DNA of 64,000 nt from contig JBAQNH010000002.1 of the NCBI GenBank assembly GCA_049303575.1, positions 11,264-75,263 on the forward strand, in the 5' to 3' direction. Position 1 is the first letter of the stretch. Every line of letters starts with the position of its first letter. A program made the position numbers and the translations under genes. Positions 2,853 through 62,222 of this stretch are shown here, piece by piece. The notes beneath the pieces were generated by a model. That model ran no database searches and was not told where the DNA came from. It saw nothing but the letters and a program-made list of their open reading frames with translations. The stretch is from Microgenomates group bacterium (lineage in GTDB: Bacteria; Patescibacteriota; Microgenomatia; UBA1400; MFAQ01).

Positions 2853-2898
2853 ACTCTCAATATACCAAAAATCCCACCATCGCGGCGGGACTTAATTG

Positions 2899-2972
2899 TG
2901 GGCGCTCATGGGGTCGAACCATGCACCTCGGTCTTATCAGGACCGCGCTCTAACCAGATGAGCTAAGCGCCC
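2899..2972 (-). tRNA. tRNA-Ile (anticodon GAU)
   Basis: Reverse complement folds as canonical cloverleaf GGGCGCU-UA-GCUC-AUCUGGUUA-GAGC-G-CGGUC-CUGAUAA-GACCG-AGGUG-CAUGG-UUCGACC-CCAUG-AGCGCCC-A; anticodon loop CUGAUAA. Confidence 0.9.
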
Positions 2973-3060
2973 TTAACAAGGACATATTTTACCATAAACA
3001 AACTTAAACAAGCACAAAAAGACTGGGTTTCCCCAGTCTTATAAACTTCTCCCATTCAAA

Positions 3061-3360
3061 CTAAATGCCGGAAAGCAAGGCCATCAAACCGACCATCAAT
3101 ATTACAAGTGCAAAAAGGGCCGTTGTATAACCCAACATCTTCACACAGCCCAACCAAAAAGGACCATCAGTAAACAGAAGGTTCAGACAAAATGGTAGCG
3201 CCAGGTAGGACACAGAGAACAAACCAATTGCCAACGGTAAATTGTTTACTTCCGTCCCCGTGGCAAACATACTTCCCAGACTTACAATAACAAGCGCTAG
3301 GATGACACAAACTGGTATTATCACGAACAACTTCAACCACTCAGGCATCGTTTCCTCCAA
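3061..3360 (-). CDS. Small hydrophobic membrane protein (99 aa, ~3 TM)
   Basis: ORF between 16S 3' end and tRNA-Ile on same strand; strongly hydrophobic segments (FVIIPVCVILALVIVSLG..., LFALVILMVGLMALLSGI). Confidence 0.4.
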   Translation of the reverse strand: MEETMPEWLKLFVIIPVCVILALVIVSLGSMFATGTEVNNLPLAIGLFSVSYLALPFCLNLLFTDGPFWLGCVKMLGYTTALFALVILMVGLMALLSGI

Positions 3361-3440
3361 TCAAAATTTCAAACTACAAACCAACCAATAGCAGCATTAT
3401 ACCATTAATATAGGCCTAAGTCAACCTTTTCCTAGCAAAA

Positions 3441-3470
3441 AACGCCACCAAAAACCCGCCTTACGCGGGT
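3441..3470 (-). terminator. Hairpin (CCCGC-loop-GCGGG) followed by U-run on minus strand; terminator or processing stem downstream of 16S
   Basis: plus-strand aaaaacgccaccaaaaaCCCGCcttacGCGGGt; reverse complement gives stem + UUUUU. Confidence 0.3.
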
Positions 3471-3650
3471 CTTCCGTGCTCAAAGTGAAGCAGACTATTT
3501 TATCAACTGAAAAGCGGCAAAGAGTCAAGGTTAGATTTGTTTAGACACTCTCCAACCAATAGTGTGGCGATATTATCATCGGACTCGTGAAGTCCTTAAC
3601 TCCTAGAAAGGAGGTGATCCATCCGCACCTTCCAGTACGGATACCTTGTT

Positions 3651-3890
3651 CATGTTAATCCAACGTATTTCTACGGGCATGGACTATATCTTCATCCTTT
3701 TTCTAATATAAAAAAGGAGCTCGCGTGTAGTCTCTACGGAGTCCCTTTCCCGATGTCTCGGAATTGGGTTCCCTCGGTATTACCATATATCCAGCACACT
3801 CAAAAGTATACCGAATAGTTAGGCTTCACCGATACAGCAAGATTTTTAATAGAAATTACTCTCTATAGTCGCAACGTGCAGTATGCACAA
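3651..3890 (-). other. Group I intron, ORF-less (240 nt), inserted between GUCGU and AACAAGG near the 16S 3' end (equivalent to E. coli ~1506 site)
   Basis: Exon sequence GGGGCUAAGUCGU | AACAAGGUAUCCGUAC is split. The insert contains group I core elements (..CCGUAGAGACUA.. R-like, ..GAUAUAGUCC.. S-like), 5' exon ends in U and intron ends in G. Homologous to the other three rRNA introns and to 61616-61800. Confidence 0.7.
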
Positions 3891-3919
3891 ACGACTTAGC
3901 CCCCATCGCCAGTCTTACC

Positions 3920-4534
3920 TTAGGAGGCCCGATCCTTGCGGTTGCGGGTACCTACTTCGGGCACTACTGACTTTGTTGACTTGACGGGCAGTGTTCCGGG
4001 ATAACTATGCAGATCACTCTGCAAACTTCCCTCTCGCCGAGCACGCGGATTTCCCGCACCCTGGCGAATGCCTGATCTTGATGAATATTTATTCATCCGC
4101 TCTCTGATAACTCTTAATTGTTTAATTCCCTCGTGAGTAAGGTGTTTTTTCTCTTTAAATATCTCGCCAGCTTGGCAAAATAGTTCAAAAGAATACTTCT
4201 TTTTACCCAATAAAGGATATTGGTGGAAAAAAGGAATTATTTTTTCAAATATATCCTTCATTCCACTAATTTTCAGTTTTGCGTGTGGAGCCCATCCATA
4301 TCTTTCGTAGTTCAGGTCATAGACCTTTCCACAATTAAGATAAATGGCGATTGCTTCCAAAATCTCCCTGTCATCTCCCCTCAGCTCTATTTCAAAATTA
4401 AGCCTTGGATCAAGTCCAGTTTTAGTAGTTTTATGTCTACTAATTGATATCGAAAAACAACCTTCTCCATCTACAAAACCTGCAATATAGTCACCAGATA
4501 ACTTCATAATCAGGTTCGGTCCTTCCTCCGCCAT
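3920..4534 (-). CDS. LAGLIDADG homing endonuclease (single-motif type) encoded in 16S intron; ORF reads through into the downstream exon
   Basis: 204 aa; motif DYIAGFVDGEGCF near N-terminus. The ORF extends about 70 nt past the predicted 3' splice site. Confidence 0.7.
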   Translation of the reverse strand: MAEEGPNLIMKLSGDYIAGFVDGEGCFSISISRHKTTKTGLDPRLNFEIELRGDDREILEAIAIYLNCGKVYDLNYERYGWAPHAKLKISGMKDIFEKIIPFFHQYPLLGKKKYSFELFCQAGEIFKEKKHLTHEGIKQLRVIRERMNKYSSRSGIRQGAGNPRARREGSLQSDLHSYPGTLPVKSTKSVVPEVGTRNRKDRAS

Positions 4535-4898
4535 AGCGGAGTACTACGACCTCTGCAGACTTCTAATTTCTAATCGATAGGCGGTCACCCACTCTATCTA
4601 CTTTCATTAAACACGAAGTTTAACCGAAAGTCAAAACTAGATCTCCCTTCGTACTAATAGTTTCATTTTGTTTTCATCATGAGCCCAAATATTTTGTGTA
4701 ACTTTGTTTGTAAGTGTCTTCTCCATCTGTACGTAGGATCGACATTACACAAAACCGACTCGACTTCATGCTGAAAACTGCTACTTTAACCCTTCAGCAT
4801 TATCGTCACCGATTAATGCTTGTTATTTCGCTTCGCAATACTTACATTGCCGGAGGATTTTCACCTCCTAGAAAAAACTAGCGGAAGGCGCATATTAT
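3994..4898 (-). other. Group I intron with LAGLIDADG ORF, inserted in the 16S 1390-1400 region (UUGUACA | ..ACACUGCCCGUC); boundaries +/- 3 nt
   Basis: Conserved 16S sequence GAAUACGUUCUCGUUUCUUGUACA at 4899-4925 (rc) and ACACUGCCCGUCAAG at ~3975-3993 (rc) are separated by ~905 nt. Confidence 0.65.
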
Positions 4899-5201
4899 TT
4901 GTACAAGAAACGAGAACGTATTCACCGCGGTGTTGCTGATCCGCGATTACTATCAACTCCCTTTCATGCAGGCGAATTGCAGCCTGCAATCCAAACTGAG
5001 GATGGGTTTATAAGGATTAGCTCCGGCTCGCGCCTTGGCATCCCGTTGTCCCACCCATTACGCCATGTGTGTAGCCCTAGATATAAGCGCCATGCTGATT
5101 TGACGTCATCCCCTCCTTCCTCCTTGGAAAAATCCAAGGCAGTCTGCTATGGATATTTAACATAGCACAGGGGTTGCGTTCGTTACGGCACTTAAGCCGA
5201 C

Positions 5202-6065
5202 GCCTCCAAAAATATTTGAAAATTACTTCAAACGTAGACTATACCTTCACCCTTCGCTTTCGCGTTAGGGGCCGACGTGTTATGGAAATAGATTACTCTA
5301 CCCATCTTCATCCTGTCTAAACAGGAATCTAGTCGTTACGGGGTCAAGACCTTTATATTTCATACATTCTGGCATATATTTGAAGATTAAATTGAAAAAT
5401 TGATTTACCGAATTACTTCTAATTCTTAGTCTCTTTTTCTTTTCGTTCAACAAACAGTCCAATTTGAACTTATTTTTCAATAAAGAAATAACTTCGTTCA
5501 AATCTTCCAGTCGATAACTTTCGGTCGCTATTGTCGGATATTTATGCTTTTCAAAATGACCATCATCCATATACCAAACTGCCAAAGAAAGAGGGGTAAA
5601 CCACTTCTTTAGTGTCTGAATAGGAATGGTCTTCACACCATCAGGATAAAATAACCGTCTGAATTCTCGAAAATACTGTCTCAAAAAAAATCTTTTACTT
5701 TCTGAAACTACTCCGTTTCGTCTATCAAGACGTAAAACGGAAGCAATTTTTGGATAAGCTAATCTCTTTAATAAGCCGTATTTCCAATTCAAATAGCCAC
5801 TTTGTTTGTTTGATTGTTCAAAACAAATCTTTCCTAATGGGTAAACATAAGCATCTCCCAAAATGGAACCAATTATTATCGACAATTCATCATGCGAAAG
5901 AGATAAATGAATATTCCTTCGTATTAGAATTTGCCGAATGTCAGTCTGACTTCCCTCGGTATTACCCATTTGAATCCATTTAACCCGAAGTTAAACCGAA
6001 TGTCAACAGGGCTTCACCGATATGAGTCGGATTTCTCATTCCCGATTACTCGAGAAGGTCGCGAT
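5202..6065 (-). other. Group I intron with LAGLIDADG ORF, inserted in the 16S ~1075 region (GUGUCGUGAGCU | UCGGCUUAAGUGCCG); boundaries +/- 3 nt
   Basis: 16S blocks CUGCAUGGUUGUCGUCAGUUCGUGUCGUGAG (rc of 6066-6100) and GGCUUAAGUGCCGUAACGAACGCAACCC (rc of ~5170-5200) are separated by ~860 nt. The intron start shares the ..UAUCGGUGAAG.. and ..ACCGAGGGAAG.. blocks with the other introns. Confidence 0.65.
5298..5969 (-). CDS. LAGLIDADG homing endonuclease (double-motif) in 16S intron
   Basis: 223 aa; motifs LSIIIGSILGDAYV and LAVWYMDDGH. ORF start lies inside the conserved intron block ..GGUAAUACCGAGGGAAG... Confidence 0.75.
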   Translation of the reverse strand: MGNTEGSQTDIRQILIRRNIHLSLSHDELSIIIGSILGDAYVYPLGKICFEQSNKQSGYLNWKYGLLKRLAYPKIASVLRLDRRNGVVSESKRFFLRQYFREFRRLFYPDGVKTIPIQTLKKWFTPLSLAVWYMDDGHFEKHKYPTIATESYRLEDLNEVISLLKNKFKLDCLLNEKKKRLRIRSNSVNQFFNLIFKYMPECMKYKGLDPVTTRFLFRQDEDG

Positions 6066-6355
6066 AGCTCACGACACGAACTGACGACAACCATGCAGCA
6101 GCTGTGTAACACCCTCGAAGGAGTCCCTGTTTCCAGGGATTTGCAGTTACATGTCAAATCTAGGTAAGGTTCAAGGTTTCGTATCCAATTAAACCACATG
6201 GCACGCTGATTGTGCGTTTCCCCGTCAATTCCTTTGAGTTTTAACCTTGCGGTCGTACTCCCCAGGCGGAACACTTAACGCGTTAGCTTACGCCACTCCC
6301 CTTGCGGGAAATAGCTAGTGTTCATAGTTTACGGCTAGGACTACAGGGGTCTCTA

Positions 6356-7236
6356 CATAACTGTTACTTCTTCCACAAAAGTGGAATACTAACCTCGATT
6401 TTCATCAAGGCGGCTAATCGTTTCTGATTAACTCTGTACATTACTGCACAGATCGGACTGTATCATGCTCCGATTTTCATCGGAGTCCGGCGTACAGTCT
6501 CTACGGGGTTTTTCTCTATATGGAATAAATTTATATTCAAACTCAGGCAAGATATACTCGCCCAACTTACTTTTTAATTCGTGCAAAGTTCTAAAGGGAA
6601 AATAAATAATATATTTTCCTTTGTTAATTCGCTTCGATGCCTGAATCCCGATGTTTTTCTTAATGGCTTTGATAAGTAAACTTACCTCTGCTTCAGAAAA
6701 ACTGTGAGTTTGGATTGATAAACCGGCATATTCTGCCGAGCCATCATCCATAATCCAGACAGCAAGTACCAAAGGATCAATTGCAGATGCTATCAATGAG
6801 ATAACAACTTTCTTGTGGTTTTTATAAAACAACTGATAATAATGGGTAAAAATAGGATGAGTTAAAGTCACAAACTCGGCAAAGTTGTAGTCTTTTATGC
6901 CGACTTTCTGAGAAAACTTTCTTATTTTCATTGAAATAATTGGTTCAAAAATACGCCATTTGTAATTTACCAAACTTAGCTGTTTAAGGCTATGTTTAAT
7001 ATGCAAACGACAATTCTTTCCCCGAAATCTCAAACCACCATCACCCAACATTGTTCCAATCAAAACGCTCCTTTGAGTTTTAGTTAAACAAAATTCATTC
7101 TTTTTATAGTTAAAAACTTCCCTCGGTGTTTTCCTCACTTATTCAGTATACCCGAAAGTAAACCGAAACCACAAGGACTTTCACCGATATAGCCGATTCT
7201 TTAATTACGCATTACTACGTAATGGGACTAGTCAAA
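6356..7236 (-). other. Group I intron with LAGLIDADG ORF, inserted at 16S ~788 (GGGAU | UAGAGACCCCUGUAGUCC)
   Basis: Exon ...ACGAAAGCUAGGGGAGCGAAAGGGAU ends in U; P1 can form between exon GGGAU and intron GUCCC. The intron ends ...GUUAUG (G) before UAGAGACCCC. The R-like (CCGUAGAGACUGUACG) and S-like (GAUACAGUCCGA) elements are present at 6440-6500. Confidence 0.75.
6428..7138 (-). CDS. LAGLIDADG homing endonuclease (double-motif) in 16S intron; GTG start
   Basis: 236 aa; motifs SVLIGTMLGDGGL and LAVWIMDDGSAEYAGL; start codon GTG embedded in the conserved ..ACACCGAGGGAAG.. intron block. Confidence 0.75.
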   Translation of the reverse strand: MRKTPREVFNYKKNEFCLTKTQRSVLIGTMLGDGGLRFRGKNCRLHIKHSLKQLSLVNYKWRIFEPIISMKIRKFSQKVGIKDYNFAEFVTLTHPIFTHYYQLFYKNHKKVVISLIASAIDPLVLAVWIMDDGSAEYAGLSIQTHSFSEAEVSLLIKAIKKNIGIQASKRINKGKYIIYFPFRTLHELKSKLGEYILPEFEYKFIPYREKPRRDCTPDSDENRSMIQSDLCSNVQS

Positions 7237-7989
7237 ATCCCTTTCGCTCCCCTAGCTTTCGTTCATCAGCGTCTGGAATGTCCTAGTTACCTGCCTTCGC
7301 TTTTGGTATTCTTCTTGATATCAACAGATTTCACTCTTCCACCAAGAATTCTAGTAACCCCGAACATCCACAAGTCTATCAGTTTAACGGACATCTCCGG
7401 GGTTGAGCCCCGGGCTTTAACCCGTTACTTAATAGACCGCCTACGATACTCTTTACGCCCAATAAATCCGGATAATGCTTGCACTCTACGTATTACCGAG
7501 GCTTCTGGCACGTAGTTAGCAAGTGCTTTCTAATAGGGTACCATCAAAATTTTTTCCCCTATCACAGTAGTTTACGACCCGAGGGCCTTCATCCTACACG
7601 CAGTGTCACTGCATCAGACTTTCGTCCATTGTGCAAAATTCCCAGTTGCTGCCACCCGTAGGTGTATGTTCCGTGTCTAAGTAACATTGTGGGGGACCAC
7701 GCTCTCACGTCCCCTAGCCGTCATAGCCTTGGTGAGCCATTACCTCACCAACTAGCTGATAGCAAACAGGCCCATCTATCGTCGGCCGGTTAAGGCCTTT
7801 CATCTTGCGATCTTATGCGGTATTATCTCGCCTTTCGGCGAGCTATTCCCCAACAAAAGGTAGGTTCCTGTCAATCCTCACCCGTCTGCCACTGATTTGG
7901 CCTTGCGGCCTCCTCCGTTCGACTTGCATGCTTAAGGTACACTGCCAGCATTCATCCTGAACCAGGATCAAATTCTCAATTAAAATTGA

Positions 7990-61538: not shown

Positions 61539-61567
61539 TTGTCAAACGTGCCCATTCGTGCTAGAAT
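61539..61567 (+). promoter_or_regulatory. Strong sigma70-like promoter (-35 TTGTCA, 17-nt spacer, -10 TAGAAT) driving a plus-strand non-coding transcript
   Basis: TTGTCAaacgtgcccattcgtgcTAGAAT; predicted start ~61574, 12 nt before the putative 5' exon. Confidence 0.55.
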
Positions 61568-61585
61568 ACGCTTGTTCGTTGATTT

Positions 61586-61841
61586 GCGGGTGGAAGGTGA
61601 GTATCTTGCGAGGCTCAAATGGGCCGTTCAATGAGTAATTGTTGAATAGAACTTGGCTATATCGGTGAAATCCTAGTAAGGGACAACGCCGAGGGAAGTC
61701 TCCGTCTATGACGGATGACCCCGTAGAGACTAAACGCCGAGCTCCTAGTTTACTAGGATGATGACATAGTCCGACACTCTGAGTAATTAGAGAAACTGTG
61801 CATAATCTCGCTTAACTGGGGAGCGTGACCCCAGACCCGCA
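61586..61841 (+). ncRNA. Putative intron-split tRNA-like gene (anticodon CAU after splicing): 5' exon 61586-61615, group I intron 61616-61800, 3' exon 61801-61841
   Basis: Exons fold as acceptor GCGGGUG/GACCCGC (6 of 7 bp) + discriminator A. The anticodon stem CGAGG/UCUCG closes the loop CU|CAUAA, which is reconstituted across the splice junction. T-stem is UGGGG/CCCCA. D-loop and T-loop are non-canonical (no G18G19, no T54-psi55-C56). 5' exon ends in U and intron ends in G; P1 is possible between exon GGCU and intron GGCC. Confidence 0.4.
61616..61800 (+). other. ORF-less group I intron (185 nt), fifth member of the 16S intron family, in plus orientation outside the rRNA gene
   Basis: Colinear with the reverse complement of the rRNA introns: GGCUAUAUCGGUGAAAUCC..., ...CGCCGAGGGAAG..., ...CCCCGUAGAGACUAAACGCCGAG... 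(R-like), ...GAUGACAUAGUCCGA... (S-like). Closest to the 3651-3890 ORF-less intron, with an about 40-nt deletion. Confidence 0.65.
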
Positions 61842-61844
61842 ACA

Positions 61845-62222
61845 CTATTTTAGAAGTGCCCACCACTTCTCCCAGTTTTCTACCTGTTTTTCTTCTTCTG
61901 TCGCCTCCTTTATAGTCAACTGGTCCCCTTTTGGTAGTACCGCCACCACTTCTCCAACTTTTTGCATATTTAGTTGTTCTCTGATTATTTTTTCCTTGTA
62001 TTCCTCGGTCATTACCAAACCAAGCTTATCCTTTAGCATTTGGTTCTTTGCTTCTTCCTCGACCAAACGAGTCTTAGCCTCATCTATTCGAACGTAACCC
62101 TTTCTTAACTGCCAAAGGTCTTTTGCCAAAGAAAAAATAAGTATCCAGGCAATAACTAAAATTATGCCTTTGATCCAGCCCTTTTTGTTTGTTTCCTTGT
62201 TTCCCCTGTTTAAAGCTTGCAT
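61845..62222 (-). CDS. FtsB/DivIC-like septum-formation initiator (single TM + coiled coil)
   Basis: 125 aa; N-terminal TM (IKGIILVIAWILIFSLA) followed by heptad-repeat region; family assignment by architecture only. Confidence 0.4.
   Translation of the reverse strand: MQALNRGNKETNKKGWIKGIILVIAWILIFSLAKDLWQLRKGYVRIDEAKTRLVEEEAKNQMLKDKLGLVMTEEYKEKIIREQLNMQKVGEVVAVLPKGDQLTIKEATEEEKQVENWEKWWALLK

Follow-up and report, generated by a model that had tools for sequence, protein, structure and literature searches.

The DNA analysed here is a 64-kb stretch (hereafter the window) of contig JBAQNH010000002.1 from a Microgenomates group bacterium, and its minus strand carries a 16S rRNA gene in which five exons are separated by four introns, named I1 to I4 from the 5' end of the gene. 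In our reading the locus is very probably the single 16S rRNA gene of a bacterium of the candidate phyla radiation (CPR) related to Candidatus Collierbacteria, with four mobile introns of self-splicing type, three of group I and one of group II, in universally conserved stretches of the gene.

Exons, introns and nearest relatives of the 16S rRNA gene

The whole gene occupies positions 3606..7983 of the minus strand (4378 nucleotides, nt) and was delimited by matches to the Rfam SSU_rRNA_bacteria model (RF00177), by reading the junctions and by alignment to E. coli rrsH. The model matched the minus strand piecewise, at 7983-7172 (643.6 bits), 6333-6269 and 6263-4900 (the last with an 865-nt gap inside), and model positions beyond 1387 were not placed in the window by the Rfam scan, which detected only one 16S rRNA gene in the 64 kb. 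Junctions were read from the minus-strand sequence, and E. coli numbering was taken from the rrsH alignment. Exon 1 (7237..7983, E. coli ~1-788) ends in ...GGGAU and exon 2 (6071..6355, E. coli 789-1078) in ...GUGUCGU. The end of exon 3 (4901..5206, E. coli 1079-1395; ...CUUGUAC) was set by pairing with an intron loop described below. Exon 4 (3891..3994, E. coli 1396-1498) runs from ACACUGCCCGUCA to ...AAGUCGU, with a U at position 1400, and exon 5 (3606..3650, E. coli 1499-1542) from AACAAGGUA to ...GGAUCACCUCCUUUC; all five lie on the minus strand.

The introns, likewise on the minus strand and with splice sites marked by slashes, are I1 (7236..6356, 881 nt, after U788; GGGAU/...G/UAGAGACC), I2 (6070..5207, 864 nt, after U1078; GUCGU/...G/GAGGCG), I3 (4900..3995, 906 nt, after C1395; UUGUAC/...GGA/ACACUG) and I4 (3890..3651, 240 nt, after U1498; AAGUCGU/...G/AACAAGG). 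The site of I3 can equally be read as after A1396 (4899..3994), because an A is repeated at the junction. With the introns removed the 16S rRNA measures 1487 nt, and the gene, spanning 4378 nt, is 2.9 times as long. An earlier sequence-only reading of the window had described a minus-strand 16S rRNA gene tripled in length by four inserts of about 881, 860, 905 and 240 nt, containing three intact LAGLIDADG open reading frames (ORFs), one with a single motif and two with a double motif. This description was borne out, the three ORFs matching Pfam LAGLIDADG_2 (two) and LAGLIDADG_1 (one). In the predicted mature 16S rRNA a U (window 3990) replaces the near-universal C1400 of the decoding region, and the same is seen in many related loci.

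The nearest 16S relatives among the loci collected were L001 and L002, the latter of Candidatus Collierbacteria. L001 (1-3049, contig CAZWYN010000019.1), a congener, has 16S exons 99-100% identical to those of the window and flanks that are ~90% identical; it is filed as 'uncultured Pseudomonadales', a label that, like those of several other records, is clearly wrong for a CPR 16S rRNA gene. Loci with relatives of the I3 endonuclease are also mostly labelled Patescibacteria/CPR. The CPR host with an intron-split 16S rRNA gene that the sequence-only reading had proposed is supported. Joining of intron-bearing fragments from different organisms during assembly might be suspected, since the source is metagenomic and the G+C content of the introns (0.36-0.41) is below that of the exons (0.50). 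L002, an independent assembly from another study, contains the same four inserts in colinear order with 88% identity over 4.3 kb, and therefore the arrangement in the window is not a chimera or assembly artefact; moreover, the L001 counterpart of I3 is 94% identical, and the exon junctions restore a complete 16S rRNA that fits the Rfam model. We give an artefact of this kind practically no credence.

Group I introns I1, I2 and I4

I1, I2 and I4 are related group I introns of one family. The core motifs ACCGAGGGAAG, CCGUAGAGACU and AUAGUCC lie at matching places in all three, exactly or with one to two mismatches, and ACCGAGGGAA, CCGUA(G/A)(A/C)GACU and AUAGUC(C/U) are common to them at equivalent positions. 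Their 5' halves are 73-74% identical (blastn; 73% for I1 against I2). In P1 the internal guide sequence (IGS) of each intron pairs with the end of its own 5' exon, placing the last exon U opposite a G (GGGAU/GUCCC in I1, GUCGU/GCGAC in I2, AGUCGU/GCGACU in I4), and all three introns terminate in G (...UUAUG at 6356, ...UUUUG at 5207 and ...ACAUG at 3651, respectively).

The paired elements were located on the minus strand as follows. In I1 they are the IGS GUCCC (7228-7224), P3 (7196-7192/6491-6487), P4 (7188-7182/7128-7122), P6 (7122-7112/6513-6505), whose loop holds the ORF, P7 (6499-6493/6462-6456) and P8 (6485-6468), followed by the terminal G at 6356. I2 has the IGS GCGAC (6062-6058), P3 (6030-6026/5276-5272), P4 (6021-6015/5961-5955), P6 (5955-5948/5345-5340), again with the ORF in its loop, P7 (5334-5330/5241-5237), P7.1 (5326-5311), P7.2 (5305-5282), P8 (5271-5249) and the terminal G 5207. 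The ORF-less I4 comprises the IGS GCGACU (3872-3867), P2 (3866-3849), P3 (3841-3837/3724-3720), P4 (3833-3827/3779-3773), P6 (3773-3738), P7 (3732-3728/3686-3682), P8 (3718-3695), P9 (3675-3664) and the terminal G 3651.

Comparison among homologues supported this core. Unguided RNAalifold of seven I2 homologues returned P2, P3, P4, P5, P5a, P6, P7.1, P7.2 and P8, with compensatory changes in 21 of 52 pairs. A cross-family alignment was made of 14 introns, comprising I1, I2 and I4 of the window, their relatives, a further group I intron at 61.6 kb of the window and the intron at site 788 of L001; scoring was limited to P3, P4, P6 and P7, as MAFFT shifts P2 and P8 by one column between intron types. 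Within these helices 98.1% of 266 cells were paired and 7 of 19 pairs showed compensatory changes, P3 being 100% paired with four of its five pairs covarying. None of 500 shuffles paired as well, and sliding the partner strand left 33-41% paired. In I1 every one of the core pairs was formed in this alignment. P7 was invariant across the alignment, hence uninformative on covariation.

Several results weigh on the other side of this assignment. The Rfam group I model RF00028 exceeded its gathering score of 50 in I4 (57.4 bits) and stayed below threshold in I1 (23.8 bits, E=0.0055) and in I2 (15.4 bits when scanned alone); I1 and I2 both carry ~600-700-nt ORFs in P6, and I2 has P7.1 and P7.2 in addition. 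The covariation of I1 itself is thin, since just one close homologue was present among the fetched loci.

Natural ORF-less homologues of I2 occur at the same site in two other loci, L004 (297 nt) and L006 (330 nt), and these too fall below the RF00028 threshold. Both ends of I2 are covered by their alignment, which makes the ~600-nt ORF an insertion within the P6 loop. ORF1 of I1 (6428..7138, minus; 236 amino acids, aa; GTG start) and ORF2 of I2 (5298..5969, minus; 223 aa) both encode double-motif, I-SceI-like proteins of Pfam LAGLIDADG_2 (1.6e-37 and 7.2e-33, respectively), with the motifs LIGTMLGDGG and WIMDDGS in ORF1 and IIGSILGDAY and WYMDDGH in ORF2. I-SceI is among the few solved relatives of the two: ORF1 matched the PDB entries 6x1j at 2e-16 and I-SceI at 4e-11, and ORF2 matched I-SceI at 8e-18. 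The L002 copy of ORF1 is 91% identical, and same-site homologues of ORF2 are 44-91% identical.

Close relatives differ in the group I introns they carry. Introns at sites 788 and 1078 in relatives were found by blastn mapping of spliced 16S rRNA and intron halves; strict splice-site regular expressions recovered few. At site 788 L001 has a different, ORF-less group I intron of 271 nt (RF00028, 88.9 bits), and it has no intron at 1078. Its 1498 intron measures 716 nt, about 480 nt longer than I4; the 1498 introns of both L001 and L002 hold roughly 500 extra nt in the P8 loop, of which I4 of the window is the empty form, and this extra sequence is probably an endonuclease gene. The insertion sites 788 and 1498 may be CPR-specific.

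The guides of I2 and I4 are both GCGAC (6062-6058 and 3872-3868), because both 5' exons end in GUCGU. As an observation in its own right, the shared guide together with the 73-76% identity between the 5' halves of I2 and I4 fits a move between the 1078 and 1498 sites by reverse splicing.

The further group I intron belongs to the same family as those of the 16S rRNA gene and lies at 61616-61800 of the plus strand (RF00028, 69.5 bits, in window 61540-61860). It interrupts the anticodon loop (CU/CAUAA) of a small gene, which is preceded by a promoter-like TTGTCA-17-TAGAAT and followed by a terminator-like hairpin. The spliced RNA of 75 nt folds as a cloverleaf with stems of 6, 5, 6 and 6 bp and an anticodon CAU, and lacks the usual D-loop GG and T-loop sequence; ARAGORN did not recognise the spliced gene as a tRNA.

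The group II intron at site 1395

I3 is a compact group II (IIC-like) intron whose domain IV houses a LAGLIDADG gene rather than a reverse transcriptase. Its domains II-III (4519..4599, minus) matched RF01998 (group-II-D1D4-1) immediately upstream of the ORF; the score was 51.8 bits (E=1.6e-7), the gathering score being 35, and every one of the ten homologous loci that were scanned gave the match in the corresponding position. Domain V (4034..4067, minus) is a 34-nt hairpin, UCGCC-A-GGGU-GCGG(GAAAU)CCGC-GU-GCUC-GGCGA, with a CGC triad, a pentaloop, an additional bulged A in the 5' strand and a 2-nt bulge in the 3' strand. Across 42 distinct homologues, standard pairs filled all 546 cells of its 13 pairs, eight of the 13 pairs showed compensatory changes, the G and C of the triad were invariant, and none of 500 shuffles did as well. 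Domain VI (3998..4031, minus) is a hairpin with a GUGA loop, in which A4002, the eighth nt from the 3' end of I3, is the candidate branch point. Its helices covary by eye among relatives, and for about 30 of 70 distinct sequences of the family RNAfold put a single bulged A equally far from the 3' end; in the window the helix beside A4002 is weak (two A-U and two G.U pairs), and the minimum free energy fold puts A4002 in an internal loop. The CGC triad and a ribozyme of ~470 nt fit class IIC. RF01998 was considered as a marker of that class and dropped, as 4FAW, the IIC structure of Oceanobacillus, is listed with D1D4-3 instead of D1D4-1.

The 5' boundary was fixed by exon-binding site 1 (EBS1). 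The domain I loop GUACA (4728..4732, minus) is complementary to the last five nt of the exon, UGUAC (intron-binding site 1, IBS1), and this pairing therefore puts the 5' splice site after C4901. In relatives EBS1 covaries with the exon (UGCAC/GUGCA, UACAC/GUGUA, UG(U/C)ACAC/GUGUGCA), the loop being GUGUA or GUGUGCA where the splice site lies 2 nt further 3'. The 5' end of I3 (4887..4900, minus) consists of a linker AAAUAAU (4900-4894) followed by AUGCGCC (4893-4887), the counterpart of the group II start GUGYG; relatives have NGCGCC after an A/U-rich linker of 0-10 nt, the linker of the window being 7 nt.

The sequence-only reading had taken all four inserts as related group I introns sharing group I core elements, with 5' exons ending in U and introns ending in G. 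This stands for I1, I2 and I4 and fails for the 906-nt insert. Three inserts are indeed group I, LAGLIDADG genes are usually found in group I introns, and I3 has loose look-alikes of the core motifs in GGUGAAA and GAGGGAAG. Nevertheless, the motifs ACCGAGGGAAG, CCGUAGAGACU and AUAGUCC were not found in I3 even with mismatches allowed, the Rfam scan gave no RF00028 match in it, blastn gave no similarity to I1 or I4, it is preceded by C/A rather than U and its 3' terminal nucleotide is A rather than G; its D1D4 match, domain V, domain VI and EBS1 are group II features, with covariation. That all four inserts are group I introns is accordingly extremely improbable. Of the Rfam models that the sequence-only reading had pointed to, SSU_rRNA_bacteria placed the gene and RF00028, among the four introns, rose above threshold in I4 alone. 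The refuting condition which that reading had named, an insert that covariance models fail to place in group I, thus applies to I3. Its further claim that each ORF starts inside a conserved block did not hold: ORF1 and ORF2 have their starts 8-11 nt upstream of the CCGAGGGAAG block, which they then traverse, and ORF3 starts in the very different context of group II domains III and IV.

ORF3 as called (3920..4534, minus; 204 aa) encodes a single-motif protein (YIAGFVDGEG) of Pfam LAGLIDADG_1 (1.4e-25). It lies between domain III (RF01998) and domain V, with the stem CCUGAU/AUCAGG on either side. The true start is likely the ATG at 4507 (M10), just within this domain IV stem (CCUGAU 4514-4509/AUCAGG 4076-4071); many of the 224 homologues found at E<=1e-10 begin at the equivalent of M10. 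The last ~50 codons, which extend across domains V and VI and on into exon 4, are probably outside the enzyme. ORF3 matched both halves of enzymes of the I-OnuI family, with whole-chain E values from 1e-44 to 1e-50, and with its single motif the product is predicted to be of the homodimer type.

The assignment of I3 to group II also has its difficulties. The model of group II domains V-VI, RF00029, gave no match at E<=1 in the window or in ten relatives. Domain V departs from the group II consensus in its extra bulged A and, in the clade of the window (5 of 42 sequences), in a middle triad pair that is G-C and not the usual G.U. The boundaries are off consensus as well, the start being AAAUAAU-AUGCG against GUGYG and the end GGA (GA) against AY. 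Of the two, the displaced start is a variant on record, the 5' terminal linker (PMC13190283, PMC4424553). Such departures could reflect weak or protein-dependent catalysis, and I3 might be a decayed ribozyme that has lost self-splicing and needs the LAGLIDADG protein as maturase or a host factor, or one that splices only by hydrolysis and releases a linear intron. Such decay is favoured by the 7-nt linker, by the GA end, by the additional bulged A of domain V, by the triad's change from G.U to G-C and by the RF00029 failure, and fungal group II introns with LAGLIDADG genes show 5' linkers together with loss of branching (PMC4424553, PMC13190283). Set against this, compensatory change has preserved domains V and VI, the bulged A and EBS1 over dozens of lineages; furthermore, this is the sole 16S rRNA gene detected in the 64-kb window and CPR genomes are usually single-copy for 16S (PMC11270868), so removal of I3 must be efficient. 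We regard decay as unlikely, though worth bearing in mind, and keep to I3 as a compact group II intron.

The family of I3 is large. A scan of a species-level genome collection with the ORF3 family found relatives encoded at 488 loci, of which the best 80 were analysed. About two-thirds of these 80 retain both 16S flanks, and there the LAGLIDADG_1 gene is part of an insert that follows spliced position ~1338-1342 (E. coli ~1396); the remaining loci were contig-truncated or had an unaligned 3' exon. The I3-type inserts of relatives are at 1395-1397. In the loci examined (L001-L013) RF00029 misses the I3-type introns throughout, for all the perfect covariation of their domain V, and RF00028 misses the ORF-less 1078-site introns of L004 and L006; automated annotation would therefore under-call CPR rRNA introns. 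We suggest, with somewhat less than even confidence, that the 1395/1396 intron is part of a CPR-wide and very large lineage of IIC-like group II introns with endonuclease genes, one that the survey of Liu et al. 2026 missed. Equally tentative is the proposal that the combination of features in this lineage (a 5' linker of 0-10 nt, a retained branch A, an EBS1 that follows both an exon polymorphism and a 2-nt drift of the splice site, and a domain V with an extra bulged A and, in the clade of the window, a G-C pair in place of the catalytic G.U wobble) is undescribed.

Two side observations concern I3 and its site. L004 carries two group II-like introns in tandem (3090-4017 and 4025-~4517) with a 7-nt micro-exon, ACACUGC, between them; the second of the pair has no ORF, is of a different subtype (start ...CGCGCCUGGCAG) and shows a canonical domain V that lacks the additional bulged A. 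A 30-nt hairpin with a cUUCGg loop is 87% identical between I3 (4632-4600) and the P5 extension of I2 (6006-5977); I1 (~7170-7140) and the L001 and L002 introns at 1498 have variants of it. Stable hairpins could have converged here by chance, or the element could be a module or protein-binding site that these introns have in common.

Proposed splicing and homing, and comparison with known systems

In the mechanism that we propose, the 4.4-kb precursor would be transcribed and the P3-P9 core of each group I intron would fold, its guide pairing with the exon end so that U.G marks the splice site. Removal would be by guanosine-initiated transesterification, finishing at the terminal G. In I3, EBS1 (GUACA) and IBS1 (UGUAC) would position the 5' exon, with the cut 7 nt upstream of AUGCG; the attack would come from the bulged A4002 or from water, and ligation would follow at ...GGA/ACAC. 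The exons would then be joined into a normal 16S rRNA of 1487 nt. We infer splicing and ligation of all four introns from their sequences, which is a further point on the debit side of our reading.

Instead of splicing, some or all of the inserts might be intervening sequences that are excised by host RNases such as RNase III and left unligated, giving a fragmented functional 16S rRNA. Bacterial 23S rRNA is known to contain sequences of this type, and some short CPR insertions are suspected to be such (PMC11270868). The sites 788, 1078, 1396 and 1498, by contrast, are universally conserved single-stranded or functional positions and not tips of variable helices; the ribozyme cores are under purifying selection with compensatory changes, the IGS and EBS1 guides fit the exon ends, and the flanks form no long stem typical of RNase III sites. 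Excision without ligation is therefore highly improbable to us, and removal by splicing is the reading retained. It agrees with Brown et al. 2015, who showed that CPR insertions are absent from transcripts (via PMC11270868).

The three ORF products are predicted to act as site-specific nucleases on intron-less 16S alleles. Each would cut at its own site, and repair of the double-strand break would copy the intron in (homing); homing would thus account for introns in the most conserved sequences and for close relatives that differ in intron content. Indirect support is that intron presence or absence differs between near-identical 16S alleles. Activity has been demonstrated for I-ShaI, an enzyme of a CPR 23S intron (PMC11270868).

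As for the neighbouring genes, a tRNA-Ile(GAU) follows the 16S rRNA gene (window 2898-3605 region). Between the two is a hydrophobic ORF of 99 aa (3360..3061), in a ~390-nt stretch that is not present in L001. A 23S rRNA gene was not found anywhere within the 64-kb window.

The locus illustrates how CPR bacteria escape amplicon surveys, as three of its four introns lie inside primer targets (785F/806R, 1391R and 1492R) and the gene is about three times the usual length. The 515F site reads GUGCCAGAAGCCUCGGUAA, the 515F and 27F sites have two mismatches each, and the statement of the sequence-only reading that standard primers would miss this organism is upheld. For annotation, a LAGLIDADG ORF within an rRNA insert does not automatically mean a group I intron, and the Rfam models for group I and for group II domains V-VI both miss real CPR family members. 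The close relatives, with their different intron sets, offer on a small scale a natural experiment in how introns are gained, ORFs are lost and sites are possibly switched. If the ribozymes of the CPR lineage are active, they would also provide a natural bacterial series on 5' splice-site choice uncoupled from GUGYG.

Among known systems, bacterial group I introns with LAGLIDADG genes in rRNA and tRNA genes (Thiomargarita 16S; cyanobacterial, Thermotoga and Coxiella 23S) resemble I1, I2 and I4 in being small and at conserved rRNA sites, in the U.G at the 5' splice site, in the terminal G, in the endonuclease gene in the P6 or P8 loop and in the occurrence of forms with and without ORF at one site. 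The 1078 site is probably one that Thiomargarita shares. Fungal LAGLIDADG group II introns with 5'-terminal insertions were reportedly described by Toor and Zimmerly in 2002, by Mullineux and colleagues in 2010 and by Li, Costa and colleagues in 2011. The group II introns of fungal mitochondrial rRNA genes are likewise ribozymes in which a homing endonuclease replaces the reverse transcriptase, they splice upstream of GUGYG, and ORF3 resembles the I-OnuI family of fungal mitochondrial enzymes. Unlike I3, which is IIC-like and single-motif and retains a bulged A, they are IIB1, mostly double-motif and often without the branch A.

LAGLIDADG group II introns and splicing upstream of GUGYG were treated by Zimmerly & Semper 2015 (PMC4424553), who list the Thiomargarita intron as IIB1. 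Its subclass is disputed, as it is IIC in Liu et al. 2026 (GBE, PMC13190283), where the rns-1396 family is described as a IIC backbone with a single-motif endonuclease in domain IV, all members having a 5' terminal linker and no EBS2, and as found in Thiotrichaceae only, following Salman et al. 2012. Introns of group I as well as group II of 16S rRNA genes in giant sulfur bacteria are, as summarised in PMC11270868, reported to be experimentally characterised. In every rns-1396 feature that we tested (the ~1396 site, a single-motif ORF in domain IV, no reverse transcriptase, a 5' linker) I3 agrees with that family, and it is alike also in the exact 1395/1396 site, IBS1/EBS1, the compact ribozyme and the CGC triad. 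It differs in its host, which is a CPR bacterium and not one of the Thiotrichaceae, in the extra bulged A of domain V and in the G-C of its clade in place of G.U; the two were likened by their described features only.

The closest system is that of the CPR bacteria themselves. Tsurumaki et al. 2024 (J Bacteriol, PMC11270868) found insertions in 48% of CPR 16S rRNA genes, group I-like at several sites and group II-like solely at ~1400 ('16IS9'); of 53 insertions of the latter kind 39 encode LAGLIDADG proteins and none a reverse transcriptase. LAGLIDADG_1 is the predominant ORF family at 16IS9, and LAGLIDADG_2 proteins occur in group I inserts. Multi-intron CPR 16S rRNA genes and a group II intron with a homing endonuclease at ~1396 are thus already published, and since both the phenomenon and the intron type are on record, current understanding is unchanged. 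Our locus shares with those reported there the CPR host, multiple inserts in conserved regions and a group II-like intron only at ~1400 with a single LAGLIDADG_1 gene and no reverse transcriptase; there is no essential difference, and it is one more example. Beyond the Rfam-based call of that study, the present analysis adds the covariation of domain V and of EBS1 with the exon, the branch A of domain VI, the 5' linker and the exact splice sites.

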